Shown here in pieces: positions 39,001-45,000 of a stretch of 64,000 nucleotides of DNA (positions are counted from its first letter, which is position 1; each line of letters starts with the position of its first letter). The stretch is taken from assembly GCA_043819555.1 (NCBI GenBank), contig JBDREQ010000073.1, positions 160,001 to 224,000 on the forward strand. The letters run 5' to 3'. The position numbers are program-made. Source of the stretch: Candidatus Zixiibacteriota bacterium (GTDB lineage Bacteria > Zixibacteria > MSB-5A5 > GN15 > JAAZOE01).

Positions 39001-42000
39001 TCCGGTATATGAAGAAGCGGTTCGGAGATTTGTCTATGCCAATGAGATGTTTTCAACGCGAACCGATATCAGGGACGGTTGGACGACCGACCGTGGCCGG
39101 ATTTATATTACTTATGGTCCTTATAATGAATCTGAAACGGTTGAAATGGAGGGCCGCAACTATCCATATCGAAAATGGACCTATTACAATCTGGACGGCC
39201 GCAGAATATTCGTATTTGTCAATGATTTTAAGGCTCAGGTCGGCGATTACCGATTGGTTCATTCGACACATCCAAGGGAAAAATATGATCCCGTTTGGGA
39301 GCAGATTCTGAATGAGAAAGACGATACCAATAGCGATTGGCGTGATACAAGAGACAGTGATTGGTAGAATACTTGCACAAAAATATGTTTATGATTTCAG
39401 GAACCGGCGATAGCGCCGGTTCTTTTTATTTATTCGCTTTACTTTTCTGATTCAGATTCGCATCCGGAATCGGTATTACATCCTTTGCAATCATGCCCCG
39501 AGGGTTTCTCCTTAGTCGCAACAACAAATCCCCTGCGATCAGGTCCTTCATCTATGAAGTCAATGGCGACGCCACCAAATTGCTGCAACTGCTCCACTAA
39601 AGCAGGATGCATGAATACATCTATGCCGTTGGAATTGAAGTTGCTCAGACTATCTTCGGGCTCATCCAGAGCCAAACCCAAAACGGGTCCGCTTCAACCA
39701 TACCCCATAAAATTGACAAATAAACTTTTCCCCTTGGCGTTATCGGACTGCAAAACTTTATTAAGCTCCACAGATGCAAGTTCTGAGATGGTTACCATCC
39801 AATTCTCCCGGTTCTATGTTGGCCTTCCTTCGGCCAATTGCTGGTCGTCATTTATATTTTTAGAAACGCATTATAGTATATTTTTGTGCCTGCGTAAAGA
39901 ACAAAAAAAAACCGCCGAAAAAATCGGCGGCTGTAATTTGCACTCGGAATTTATTTACTGTGAACCGACACTGCCGGCTTGAGCTTTTTTGCCTCCAATT
40001 AATCGCCTGATTATAGGAACCGAAAAACGCGTCTTGGTCGGATCATTAAGCTCCAATGTGATTGATTTTTCAAAACTCTGATTGAGGTGATCCTCATTGA
40101 CCTTGATTTTGCATTCAGCCGTTTCGCCGGCTTTTACTTCATCCGGCAAATAAATTTGTAAATAACCGTAAGGTTCACTTACGATTTTCAATTCCAAATC
40201 TTCGTCTGAAACATTAGTTACCGTAAATTTGGCCTCATCAACCTCGACTTCACCGGCTCGTGAAACGTAAATCCGATATGGCTTAAACACTACCGGATAA
40301 GTTGAGTCAGGTTGCCGTACAGAATGAACGCTAATGGTAACCCGCTTGGTGGGCGGGCCTTCATTAGTAGAAATGGCGGGGCGTTTACTCGCCGGCCCAA
40401 CTTTTTGACCGGTTGAATAAATAATTTCCAATTCAGTGCTGTCGCCGACAGCAAGCTCCTTCTTTGTTAACGGAGCCTTGGTGCAGCCTCAGCCAGGCTT
40501 TACGTCTAATATCTTCAGCGAATCATCCCCAACCGATTTAATCCAGAATACATGGGATACTTTGCAATCCTGGGGCACAAACCCAAAATCAAATGAGGTT
40601 TCGGGAAGAAGCATTTTCGGCACTGCCATTGCCTGTGAAGATATGAGAGCCATTAAGAGGATTGTTAAGAAAACACTAATCAATAATTTGCGCATTTATC
40701 CTCCATTTTAGTATATAAGTCATCAGCCTATTATATTGTCATCGGCGCGATAAGTTTCAAATTTATCAATTCGAACCAATTTGTTAAAAATCTAATACTT
40801 TTCAACCGTATGTCAAGGAATATACGAATTCATTTTGGAATTCGTTTTATACATATTCCATTATTTTATGTCTCTATATATAGACGCTTATAACTTAATC
40901 TTGGTTACGCTCAAAATTCACTCATACTCCAATATAGTTGTAATTATTCGACTCGTTTCCAGCAATAATCTAATCCCTTGAAATCGTATAATTTAAAATT
41001 CCGTATCACAAATTAATATCACATTCTGTACTTTTTTCAAATATCTTCCGATTATATGATTGACAACTGCACGAATGGGCAGTATAAGGTAGTAGAATAA
41101 AGCCTGTTTTTCAGGAGGATAAATGGCTGACAAAAACAAACTAACCAGACGGCAACAACAGATACTTGATTTTATCGAGGAAATGGTCAATATCTCCGGT
41201 TTGCCGCCAACTATCAGAGAAATTGGTCTCAAGTTCAGTATTGCCTCAACCAATGGCGTCAGATCGATCCTGAGCGCTCTTGAAAAGAAAGGATATATAC
41301 ATCGCCAAAAATTGGTCTCGCGCGGAATCGAGCTGATCAAGCGATCGCCGATTATGTTTAATCGCATCCCAATTGTCGGCTCAGTTCCGGCCGGATTGCC
41401 AATAACAGCTATTGAGAATCGCGAGGGGGAAATGGCCGTTGATACAGCATTTTTACCCAACGATAAGGTGTTTTGTCTGAGAGTTAAAGGTGAGTCAATG
41501 ATAAACGCCGGTATATTTGATGGAGATTTTGTACTGGTCGATAAAAATATCGATCCCCTGAAAGGCGATATTGTTGTGGCCGTTATCGGCGAAGAAGCAA
41601 CGGTCAAAAAGTTCTATCCGGAGAAAAGACGTGTCCGCCTTGAGCCTCAAAACGAAGCTTTTGGACCAATTATTGTCGATAGTAATACTCCGGGATTCTA
41701 TATCGCCGGCCGGGTTGTGGGATTGATGAGACGCATGAGATAATACAGACATTTTTAGTTCTGTAGCGTTTTTTAAGATAGTTTTTCATTTTCATATTTG
41801 CACTTTTGCAGAATTAAGGCAGTCCAGATGTATAAATATGCCGTGCTTGTAATGCTATTATTAATAATTAGTAAGAGCTTGTTATTAAACTATTACTTTA
41901 TGTGAAGCGAGGGGATATGTATCAGGATATGGACGAACCTATTGAGGTCGTTGTGTTATTTCAGAACAACAAAATGAAGCCTTCCCGGTTTCGCTGGAAC

Positions 42001-45000
42001 GGTACCGTGTACAAAATTGCTGAAGTAACCGGCGACTGGAAAACTGACGTAGGGGCGTATCGTATTCGCCATTTCGCGGTGGTTGATTCGTCGTCTAATT
42101 TTTATCAATTGTCGTACGACGAACGCAAAACCAGTTGGGTTATCAGTAAAATCTGGGTGGAATAGATGATAGATTATTCTCCTGTCATAGCTCATGTTGA
42201 CATGGACGCGTTTTTCGCAGCTGTGGAAACCCGGAACAATCCCCACTTAAAGGGAAAACCGGTTATTGTCGGTGGCGGAATCGGGCCGCGGGGAGTTGTC
42301 TCAACCTGCTCTTATGAAGCCCGGAAGTATGGTGTCCATTCAGGGATGTCGGCCGTGCAGGCAAGAAAACTATGTCCGAAGGGAATTTTTATATCCGCCG
42401 GATTGAGAGGATATGTGTACGCTTCCGCATATCTCCAGAAAATATATGAATCATATTCGCCTCTGGTGCAGCCAATCAGCATTGACGAAGCTTTCCTCGA
42501 TATAACCGGAGCAGATCGTTTGTACGATGGACCGGTGGAATTGATCCAGAAAATGAAAAATGAAATCTGGGAGAAAATGAAATTGACCTGCTCGGTTGGT
42601 ATTGCCCCGACAAGATATCTGGCCAAACTATCATCGGGAATAAATAAACCGAACGGCTTGACCGTTATGAACCAGGAGAAATTTAAAGAAGTATTTTATT
42701 CCAAACCGGTGGATGCATTGTGGGGCATCGGCGAAAGCACCAAAAAAACACTGGCCCGGGAAAATATCCATACTGTTGCTGACCTGGCCGCGACTGATTC
42801 GAAAATTCTACATAGAATATTCGGTAAGAACGGAGACACCTTATCAATTATGTCCCGTGGAACAGATAACGGTCAAGTTATGCGCTATGAAGATGTGCCT
42901 CACGATAAATCAATGTCGCATGAGACGACTCTTAGAGTAGATATTTATGACCCAACAATTATCAAGGCAACGCTATTGTGGCTTTCGGATAAAGTCGCTC
43001 GAAGGATGCGACGACACGGCTATGTTGGATGTACGATCTCGGTTAAAATTCGTTCATCAGATTTTACTACGATTACAAGAGCCCACACTCTAAGAAGACC
43101 GACTGACCGGTGTGATATTATTTTTCATAATGCCGTAAAGCTGATTCCCAAAGAATACGGGATGAAATATAAAGTACGATTATTGGGGGTACGCGCATCT
43201 CAATTAAAAAAAATCAAATCTTCATCAGGAAATGATATTAATTCCGATTTGATGTCTCAATATGAACTGATTCTCGATAACCGTGAAGAAAAATACAAGA
43301 AACTGACAGGAGCGATGGATAATATCCGCGATAAATACGGTGAGCATATAATTAAGCTGGCCGGTTCGATGCGTTGACTATTTTATCTATTTTGTCCTCT
43401 TTTTTCATTTTTCCACATTCTCTCCTCTGATTCCCTTGATTTTATCACTCAAATGTTTTATAATTTTTACACAGTCAATTGCAAAACGCGGGTGTTATTA
43501 TGAAAACCATAACCGAAGAAAAATTGAAAGAAAATAAAATGAGTTCTATCGAAAAATGGGGTGTCACGTCCCACGTCCTCACGCTGGAAAGTTCAATTAT
43601 AAGAGAAATTCTCAAACTATCATCTCAACCCGGTGTAATTTCATTTGCCGGCGGATTACCATCCCCCGACATGTTTCCCGAAGAAGACCTTAAAGAAGCT
43701 GCCATTCGAGCCTACGACAATCATCATGACGCCGCTCTCCAATATTCTTTTTCTATGGGCGTTCCTGCCTTTAGGGAAATCATTGCCGAGTATTCCGGTC
43801 GGCAAATTCCGGAATTGATAGCTGATAACATTATCATTACCTCCGGCTCTCAGCAAGGGCTTGATCTGGTCGGACGCGTGTTCCTTGACCCTGGCGATTA
43901 TATCATTTGCGAATCTCCAACATATGTTGGAGCCCTTCAGGCATTTAATTTTTACCAGGCCCGATATGCCACGATCGATATGGATGAATATGGGATGCTT
44001 GTCGATCAACTTGAGGAAAAAATCAAGAAATATAATCCCAAGTTTATCTATGTTGTTCCGAATTTCCAGAACCCCTCCGGAATATCGATGTCTCTCAAAC
44101 GGCGAGTGCAGCTGATTGAAATTGCTAACCGCCATAATATCCCTATTATTGATGATAATCCTTACGGCGATTTGAGGTTTGAAGGTGAACCGTTGCCTTC
44201 ACTAAGAGCCCTGGGTGGAGATACGGTTATTTCCCTTTCTACATTTTCAAAAATTTGTGCCCCCGGATATAGAATAGCCTGGTTGATTGCTCCAGCTGGT
44301 ATTATGAAGATTTTTGAACGAGTGAAACAATGTTGCGATCTCCATACCAGCACTTTCGGACAGATGGTACTTCTTGAATACATGAAAATGAATAAACTCG
44401 ACAGCCATATTCAAAAGATTTGTGAATGCTATAAACACCGGAGGGATGTTATGGTGTCAGCTATTCATGAACACTTTCCCGACGAAGCAAGATTTGTTGT
44501 ACCCCAGGGTGGGTTATTCCTCTGGATGACACTTCCAAACGGGATGTCGGGTAAAGAGCTTTTGACAAAAGCCGTTGAGGCGAAAGTAGCCTATGTTTAT
44601 GGCTCGCCGTTTTTCCCCAACGGCGGGGGAGAAGATACCCTTCGTTTGAATTTTTCGAATGCGTCCGATGATATGATTTCTGAAGGTATAAAACGATTAG
44701 GGCGCATCATTAAAGAGAATATGTGATGAGCAACAGGTATATTTAAACTAAACAAAAAACCCGTCTAAAGGCGGGTTTTTTTATACCCAAATTCTGTTTT
44801 TGTCGCTATCATTGGCAAGTATGAAGAAGCCATTTTCAAAATACCAGGCTCTTGGAAACAGTTTTCTAGTATTTGATGAGGTTTTTATCAAGGGCATAGA
44901 CAAAAAATACGAGTCATTGGCATTGGAAATCTGTGATAAAACGCACGGTATCGGCGCTGATGGTTTATTGATTTTATCAAAACGGCAGGGGGCCTATCGG

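Follow-up and report, generated by a model that had tools for sequence, protein, structure and literature searches.

A putative LexA operator in the lexA promoter of a Zixibacteria genome and the small regulon predicted from it

The window analysed, a stretch of 64 000 nucleotides from a Candidatus Zixiibacteriota genome, contains a lexA gene with a palindrome in its promoter. The question this locus raises is whether that palindrome is the operator of LexA, the DNA-damage repressor, and which genes would then be under its control. The elements of the promoter region are the following:

41005..41023, + strand: ATCACA repeats in tandem with a 13-bp spacing, preceding the lexA promoter
41060..41065, + strand: −35 hexamer TTGACA of the lexA promoter
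41066..41083, no strand assigned: putative LexA operator ACTGCACGAATGGGCAGT (half-sites ACTGCAC and GGGCAGT around GAAT), filling the 17-bp spacer between −35 and −10
41083..41088, + strand: −10 element TATAAG of the lexA promoter, without the usual last T

The position given in the first-pass annotation proved correct: the palindrome occupies 41066–41083, between TTGACA and TATAAG, and matches 14 of the 16 positions of the consensus proposed at that time. An AGGAGG is found at 41113–41118 and the lexA ATG at 41123. The promoter scan missed the −10 element because its last T is absent; in the aligned lexA promoters of relatives, the element at the same place is mostly TANNNT. Of 67 promoters, 52 have a TTGAC starting 6 nt upstream of the 18-mer and 4 have it 7 nt upstream. 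When 70 lexA promoters were searched de novo, the top palindrome was CTG-N10-CAG, present in 36 of the 70 upstream regions compared with 2.6 expected. At least 12 of 16 consensus matches were found within 160 nt upstream of the gene in 57 of 69 relatives, against 15 of 700 shuffled sequences, which bears out the conservation claimed earlier. The operator core could be written as CTG[AC]AC-N4-GT[GT]CAG; a strict pattern gave 94 strand matches spread over 41 of 48 genomes, and the reversed pattern, used as a control, gave five. With a matrix from whose training the host's family had been held out, all 12 promoters of that family scored 12.8–23.6 bits (22.4 bits for the lexA site in the window). 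The dyad is thus conserved, overlaps the lexA promoter, and scores well when held out, in agreement with the earlier proposal of a putative operator through which lexA would be autoregulated; the motif also lies upstream of DNA-damage genes. The palindrome is very probably the binding site of LexA. Could the conservation instead reflect a strong σ70 promoter (TTGACA … TA) rather than an operator? As such an explanation would have it, the site is nearly always flanked by TTGAC and TA and runs with its last bases into the −10. The spacer, however, forms a palindrome of specific sequence, the same box covers the −35 at dinB2-dnaE2 (contig C21) and sits after TATAAT at uvrA in families f9 and f14, and a box of at least 10 bits is absent from all 32 pgsA promoters that have TTGAC and a −10, all of which makes this explanation extremely improbable.

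The protein expected to read the site is encoded immediately downstream:

41123..41743, + strand: lexA, 206 aa, intact; TIGR00498 195 bits (cut-off 111), PF01726 and PF00717

It has the make-up of a canonical LexA, with a winged-helix domain (PF01726) at the N-terminus, an S24 domain at the C-terminus and a TIGR00498 score above the cut-off; alignment to solved LexA structures places the Ala-Gly cleavage site at A90-G91 and the catalytic Ser/Lys dyad at S125 and K162. Its recognition helix is STNGV (residues 42–46), and STN[GAS]V is found in all 70 Zixibacteria LexA proteins. In two other phyla, a box of at least 7 bits accompanied LexA in 42 of 48 cases where the helix was S[TP]NGV, versus one of 12 where it was another; a counterexample is an Elusimicrobia LexA with an APSSV helix, which still has a 22.5-bit site. 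In family f6, where no LexA DNA-binding domain scored above the cut-off, the box is absent too (0 of 3 genomes); f6 is one genus, and this therefore counts as one loss event. Strong boxes persist at the helicase in three genomes (G053, G105 and G151) in which no LexA match was found. The absence of lexA suspected in four others was dismissed, the gene being present and interrupted by a run of N in G084 and G191, and falling in a contig gap in G052 and G186. The three genomes with boxes and no detected LexA would fit a different regulator, for which lexA would be just one target: a WYL protein (two are encoded in the genome, one of them at 15938–16912) or a protein binding the ATCACA repeats. 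The dinB2 site, near-invariant over 21 nt and abutting ATGTGA, also suggests a second binder. Such a regulator is nevertheless very unlikely to account for the palindrome, since the box was lost along with lexA in f6 and follows the LexA recognition helix across phyla, and a similar sequence is bound in vitro by the LexA of Myxococcus xanthus, according to an excerpt of PMC9705874. As for the repeats themselves, 21 of the 67 aligned promoters have TCAC[AT]T at −46 to −48 and 17 have it at −59 to −61; nearly all of these belong to the host's order. The full ATCACA dyad is single-copy in the genome, no genome-wide regulon was found for the repeats, and they form no full palindrome of the Rex type.

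The genome was scanned with the held-out matrix. The site at position 2480 of contig C48 came first (27.5 bits), that of lexA second (22.4 bits), the same order as reported before, and that at position 60910 of C21 third (17.9 bits); all three are intergenic, and the next three sites (17.5, 17.3 and 16.2 bits) lie inside genes. By its score alone the C21 site is at noise level (six sites of at least 16 bits observed, 5.3 expected), and its support therefore comes from conservation: a box was present in 10 of 11 cases, which makes dinB-dnaE2 a better supported target than had been held. The test of the helicase promoter (C48 in the host) was reproduced: a box precedes the gene for the Hel308-like helicase in each of 26 genomes, compared with none of the three genomes of f6, the family without lexA. 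The helicase has DEAD and Helicase_C domains and a weak match to the archaeal domain 4, and scores 214 bits with NF040935 (cut-off 1200), so that it can be called Hel308-like only. Of the Hel308-lon operon previously listed in the regulon, the helicase thus stands; lon is doubtful as a firm member because it is preceded by a promoter-like sequence of its own (TTGACA-17-TAAACT, between the two genes). Cassettes resembling imuA-imuB with the same box upstream were found in four genomes of other families. In f5 and f8, genes that follow boxes and looked ‘RecA-like’ were rejected as recA, being ImuA-like instead. Across GTDB, the gene following the pattern was lexA, helicase/Zn-ribbon, dinB, DUF6504 or recA at 85 of 118 loci.

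The regulon had been described as lacking recA. This is true of the host's order, in which no recA site was found in 20 genomes (best score, 6.5 bits), but not of the phylum, where 8 of 48 genomes carry a site at recA and 3 of 30 carry one at uvrA. In the host genome, the regions upstream of recA, pgsA, uvrA, uvrB, uvrC, recN, yebC-ruv, ssb and radA were scored. The best values ranged from −5.1 to 4.6 bits, i.e. background level (90th percentile, 4.8), and not all below 2 bits as previously stated; the conclusion that recA, uvr, recN, ruv and ssb have no site was upheld. Together with the genome scan, this agrees with the small regulon proposed for this genome, which would consist of a few damage-tolerance genes. 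A larger regulon, in which recA or other repair genes respond through degenerate sites missed by the matrix, is unlikely, if less so than the alternatives above. The recA2 site of M. xanthus, positive in EMSA, scores 1.8 bits on the Zixibacteria matrix, and weak real sites may therefore escape it; the 4.6 bits were those of the pgsA upstream region, and other families have clear recA sites. Against this, besides the 0 of 20 genomes of the host's order, the pgsA candidate is not conserved, and recA lies 27–35 nt downstream of thpR in 8 of 8 own-family genomes, which leaves little space for a promoter.

Downstream of lexA, the predicted operon continues with:

41828..41905, + strand: unannotated hydrophobic ORF, 25 aa, with a basic N-terminus and one putative transmembrane segment
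41920..42165, + strand: DUF6504 protein (PF20114), 81 aa from its ATG
42166..43377, + strand: dinB, Y-family polymerase with acidic motifs HVDMD and SIDE intact; NF002677 328 bits (cut-off 256)

At 44 of 70 loci, lexA has a DUF6504 gene downstream of it in the same orientation; in the window the gap between them is 176 nt, and co-transcription is a prediction. The DUF6504 protein aligns to the C-terminus of ImuB only (BLAST E 0.021), and hhalign gave a probability of 0.7% and an E of 0.087 for its comparison with ImuB-C (profile of two sequences); it may be a standalone ImuB-C-like subunit. The small ORF within this operon had been overlooked in the first-pass annotation. It is conserved in 10 of 13 own-family loci (0.6 expected) and 16 of 16 f4 loci (0.5 expected), 26 of 29 in total, ranges from 25 to 33 aa, and in f4 overlaps the lexA stop codon. 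No Pfam match or homology was found, and a similarity search (Atlas) with a 32-aa relative gave 0.80, the chance level. A repeated non-coding element was discarded, nhmmer finding one copy in the genome. The position of the ORF suggests that it is apparently a LexA-controlled gene, and it is a candidate SOS membrane effector or division inhibitor.

The sequence, position and conservation of the palindrome, its co-variation with LexA and the intact catalytic residues were all observed, and we are highly confident that it is the operator of the genome's single canonical LexA; binding, repression and induction, as we infer them, would proceed as follows. A LexA dimer in the −35/−10 spacer would block σ70 RNA polymerase. 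On DNA damage, RecA-ssDNA filaments would provoke LexA self-cleavage at A90-G91 (by S125/K162), releasing three units: (i) lexA, the small membrane ORF, DUF6504 and dinB; (ii) the Zn-ribbon protein and Hel308-like helicase of C48; and (iii) dinB2-dnaE2 of C21. In the host's order, recA would be transcribed from a pgsA-pgpA-cinA-thpR-recA operon outside LexA control, so that the regulon would be a module of damage tolerance (translesion synthesis, a helicase and perhaps a division brake), not of repair. The box would be of a Myxococcus/Fibrobacter type, recognised by those LexA proteins whose helix is S[TP]NGV. A wider reading is possible, if doubtful: SOS in the host's order would have shrunk to a module for ‘pause and bypass’, made up of two translesion cassettes, an archaeal-type helicase partnered by a Zn-ribbon protein, and a new membrane protein of 25–33 residues that would be translationally coupled to lexA and halt division; the helicase would be the most constant LexA target in the phylum, lexA itself excepted; recA and uvrA would join or quit the regulon family by family; and the S[TP]NGV-read box, common to at least six phyla, would bridge the Gram-positive and E. 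coli boxes. An uncultured phylum thus gains a well-supported putative SOS operator and a regulon testable with one purified protein; a box known from Myxococcus, and reportedly from Fibrobacter, is extended to several candidate phyla and tied to a recognition-helix signature; and candidate bacterial SOS genes are put forward, namely those for a Hel308-like helicase and for a membrane micro-protein that lacks annotation. Since the box type (Myxococcus) and a recA-free LexA regulon (Geobacter) were already known, this should be useful to specialists rather than startling.

The box had been called Zixibacterial, which does not hold: it is found at the same promoter position in Fibrobacterota, Myxococcota, Eisenbacteria and others, and resembles that of M. 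xanthus. The latter, CTRHAMRYBYGTTCAGS (excerpt of PMC9705874; PMC2248561, Table 5), shares with it the layout CT..A[AC]-N4-GT.CAG, and in M. xanthus, as in Zixibacteria, the lexA operator (positive in EMSA) comes immediately after TTGAC; its score with the Zixibacteria matrix is 13.0 bits. Symmetry is greater in the Zixibacteria sites, which mostly have GTGCAG where M. xanthus has GTTCAG; the host site matches 12 of the 17 consensus positions, and 67 Zixibacteria sites match 10–15. The host site may function like the M. xanthus box with a sequence that is not identical. The excerpt of PMC9705874 describes a small direct regulon of five genes for M. xanthus LexA, which binds recA2 and pafBC, whereas the host recA has no site. 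Of 30 LexA proteins taken as a sample of the phylum containing the Polyangiaceae, 25 have the S[TP]NGV helix. For Fibrobacter succinogenes, Mazon et al. reportedly described in 2004 the box TGCNC-N4-GTGCA, with recA, uvrA, ruvAB and ssb said to be among the regulon members. Among the 70 lexA promoters of Zixibacteria, 19 match the box so reported exactly, as does the C48 site, but the host lexA site (GGGCA) and the C21 site do not. Promoters from the phylum containing the Fibrobacteria have TTGACA-box-TA in the same register, together with an STNGV helix, and a common recognition helix and lexA-promoter register place the host box with the Myxococcus/Fibrobacter type. Among other boxes listed in Table 5 of PMC2248561, the inner AC-N4-GT is as in the Gram-positive GAAC-N4-GTTC and cyanobacterial RGTAC-N3-DGTWCB boxes and the outer CTG-N10-CAG as in the E. 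coli CTGT-N8-ACAG; the host box combines both patterns and fully matches neither consensus. Among the literature matches listed there was no study of Zixibacteria LexA, though supplements or subscription papers could carry the motif; none linked LexA with Hel308, and the part of PMC7203096 searched has no passage on LexA. SidA, YneA and SosA are SOS-induced small membrane division inhibitors of 29–165 aa, divergent from the repressor gene, according to excerpts of PMC13689564 and PMC9578287. The small ORF is like them, by sequence and position, in being a tiny hydrophobic ORF adjoining the SOS repressor gene, conserved and without homologues, but it has 25–33 aa and lies downstream on the same strand. 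Close systems are also those of Geobacter sulfurreducens, whose LexA reportedly does not bind recA (Jara, 2003), and Bdellovibrio (Campoy, 2005). The likeness to Geobacter lies in the order lexA, small beta protein, active Y-family polymerase, in autoregulation and in a recA outside the regulon; an excerpt of PMC6511836 describes a lexA-imuB-C-polY operon and a LexA that does not bind recA. The host box differs from Geobacter's GGTT-N10-AACC (PMC8565304), and the host regulon adds the Hel308-like helicase unit, dinB2-dnaE2 and the small membrane ORF.

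The lexA gene of the window encodes a canonical LexA (TIGR00498, 195 bits) with A90-G91, S125 and K162 all present; it is the only gene in the genome with a LexA DNA-binding domain over the cut-off, and its product is 86% identical to the LexA of a Zixibacteria-titled record (L257). The window sequence confirmed the first-pass annotation in placing a box within the spacer of the lexA promoter:

Features of the lexA region (window positions)
41060-41065: -35 hexamer, TTGACA
41066-41083: putative LexA operator, ACTGCACGAATGGGCAGT
41083-41088: TATAAG
Between TATAAG and the lexA start: AGGAGG
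41123: lexA start
41828-41905: 25-codon hydrophobic ORF, between lexA and DUF6504

Of 201 genomes of the phylum, 186 gave a lexA match, and lexA upstream DNA was sampled from 70 of these. The top palindrome of a blind dyad count in these 70 promoters was CTG-N10-CAG (36 occurrences, 2.6 expected). Of the 58 promoters from families other than the window's own, 55 served to train a symmetric 18-bp matrix, on which the 12 held-out own-family promoters all scored 12.8-23.6 bits. Scores of ≥10 bits were reached by 66 of the 69 relatives' promoters, 58 of them from the training pool, while by the 16-position consensus rule of the first-pass annotation 57 of 69 relatives passed, compared with 15 of 700 shuffles. 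Among 67 aligned promoters, 52 have TTGAC beginning 6 nt ahead of the 18-mer. The lexA-promoter box is real and well supported as a putative LexA operator.

When the genome was scanned, the three best sites were C48:2480 (contig C48, 27.5 bits), lexA (22.4 bits) and C21:60910 (contig C21, 17.9 bits), where permuted matrices average 0.4 (20 bits) and 5.3 (16 bits) sites. All three are intergenic, and the next three lie within genes. The C48 site is upstream of a Zn-ribbon ORF and a Hel308-like helicase, and the C21 site upstream of dinB2-dnaE2. The first-pass annotation had two in-gene sites outscoring the latter and found it weak in three of four relatives and missing in the fourth. Here the in-gene sites rank below it and it is better supported, being nearly letter-identical in 10 of 11 family genomes, this one included (13.8-17.9 bits), and absent from the 300 nt of upstream sequence available for the eleventh (G083). 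The small regulon proposed previously is supported for the lexA, helicase and dinB2-dnaE2 units. Membership of lon, which lies 3′ of the helicase here and at 7 of 30 other loci (some of which end before the lon position), is uncertain since the 97-nt gap contains a promoter-like TTGACA-17-TAAACT and this lon is one of three paralogues; the pattern occurs in two of eight gaps checked. Upstream of recA, uvrA and recN (placed by HMM) and of uvrB, uvrC, ruv, ssb, radA, recR, uvrD and recG (placed by short motifs only), scores did not exceed 4.6 bits, which is background, so these genes do appear to lack a site, if not with every score below the 2 bits first stated. The dinB2 promoter (C21:60910-60949) looks leaderless: most relatives have a -10-like TANNNT 5-8 nt ahead of the ATG, and there is no obvious ribosome-binding site. 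At C48:2530-2700 the Zn-ribbon gene start is tandemly duplicated, and the stop of the resulting 32-codon ORF overlaps the second start. An ATCACA/ATGTGA element is kept, in this order, at the lexA (window 41005-41023) and dinB2-dnaE2 (C21, near 60905) promoters, regardless of which gene is the divergent neighbour; it might serve a second regulator.

Across Zixibacteria, the strict pattern gave 94 strand matches in 41 of 48 genomes (reversed control, 5), upstream of lexA, the helicase unit, dinB or imuA-imuB-like genes, with a few within genes or ahead of unrelated ORFs. Among 30 helicase loci, one without upstream DNA, the site predicted earlier for helicase promoters was present at 26 of 26 outside family f6 (12.8-27.5 bits) and at none of three in f6, a single genus with no LexA DNA-binding domain over the cut-off. 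Counting against a LexA operator, three genomes (G053, G105, G151) retain sites and no LexA match was found in them; in two others (G052, G186) the lexA locus falls in a contig gap. A recA site of ≥10 bits was seen in 8 of 48 genomes (background 1.2%), distributed over families f7 (3/3), f14 (3/3), f9 (1/2) and f16 (1/2), and in none of 20 from the window's order. A regulon without recA is therefore a trait of that order and several families, and does not extend to the phylum. No site preceded pgsA, the operon head, at the 32 loci where the gene was found (39 examined); uvrA had one at 3 of 30 loci. In f6 (L173, L176; genome G004), a phage-type HTH-S24 repressor is divergent from a radical SAM (TIGR03916-like)-umuD-umuC cassette, reminiscent of the non-canonical SOS repressors of Bacteroidetes (PMC8565304). 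For family f2, DUF6504 was found in none of the 69 genomes searched, lexA and the helicase box being retained. A perfect box also stands ahead of a cluster of small unknown ORFs at L139 (G083:C50, near 2085), which may be a LexA-controlled mobile element.

A search of GTDB for TTGAC-NN-box-TA returned at least 118 loci. The box had been called Zixibacterial; that restriction must be dropped, since submitters' titles among the matches listed include Zixiibacteriota, Eisenbacteria, Latescibacterota, Myxococcales, Fibrobacteria, Gemmatimonadota, Elusimicrobiota and others. In 85 of the 118 matches listed the next gene was lexA (34), helicase/Zn-ribbon (37), dinB (8), DUF6504 (2) or recA (4). The recognition helix reads STN[GAS]V in 70 of 70 Zixibacteria LexA proteins. 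Two further phyla, those of a Fibrobacteria-titled and a Polyangiaceae-titled record, were sampled at 30 loci apiece; there a site of ≥7 bits accompanied 42 of 48 S[TP]NGV LexA proteins versus 1 of 12 others, kin among these not being independent. An exception to this link is one Elusimicrobia-titled LexA. Latescibacterota- and Gemmatimonadota-titled records (loci L193, L197, L199, L203, L205, L219, L252, L263, L270) have the same box-in-promoter upstream of a conserved unknown protein of ~98 aa.

An ORF similar to the 25-codon one lies ≤220 nt from the lexA stop at 10 of 13 own-family loci (0.6 expected from shuffles), and farther away at an eleventh; in family f4 it is found at 16 of 16 (0.5 expected), overlapping the lexA stop codon at 14. 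It was seen at none of 48 loci of other Zixibacteria families, short loci and those without lexA excluded. Variation is greatest at third codon positions (584 versus 440 and 367), the DNA is single-copy in the genome, and no Pfam match was found; own-family and f4 versions are alike mainly in the hydrophobic core. A peptide of the TisB type and a polymerase accessory are alternatives for its product. Our best guess, a tentative one that is somewhat more likely wrong than right, is a division inhibitor, by analogy with SidA, YneA and SosA (PMC13689564, PMC9578287).

Elsewhere in the window, codon 69 of 39955-40695 (-) is an in-frame TGA; read through, the frame gives one 246-aa OS_HP2/DUF1573-type protein, a selenoprotein. 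The palindrome TTGTGA-N6-TCACAA, which we take to be the Rex motif, has 11 intergenic sites (e.g. window 27626, C9:32874, C7:42946, C47:23058), including upstream of a Rex-like gene and the H+-pyrophosphatase in the window; with genes named by eye, these probably form a Rex regulon. The PafC/DriD-like HTH-WYL-WCX protein at 15938-16912 is a candidate regulator of a damage response independent of LexA, and C76:101435 encodes another WYL protein.

By established LexA biology, from which binding, induction and co-transcription at these units are inferred, LexA would sit on the spacer of its own promoter, and its RecA-stimulated self-cleavage would release a tolerance module of two Y-family polymerases, DnaE2, the helicase and the micro-protein. 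recA, as part of the pgsA operon, would be expressed independently of LexA.

The Fibrobacter LexA consensus is reportedly TGCNC-N4-GTGCA, which 19 of 70 Zixibacteria lexA promoters fit exactly. Among the literature-search results listed there was no study of Zixibacteria LexA and no LexA-Hel308 link. According to PMC9705874, the M. xanthus box is CTRHAMRYBYGTTCAGS, its lexA operator directly follows TTGAC, and the direct LexA regulon comprises five genes; on the Zixibacteria matrix the M. xanthus operators score 13.0 (lexA) and 1.8 bits (recA2). The Geobacter lexA-imuB-C-polY operon is damage-induced, according to PMC6511836, and a title cited there states that Geobacter LexA proteins do not bind recA; the title of a Bdellovibrio LexA study says much the same. 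PMC8565304 counts 17 known LexA motifs, and Table 5 of PMC2248561 gives neighbouring consensus sequences. The box type is known and the reduced regulon is also of a known kind; new here are the cross-phylum link between box and recognition helix, the patchy control of recA and uvrA, and the micro-protein.
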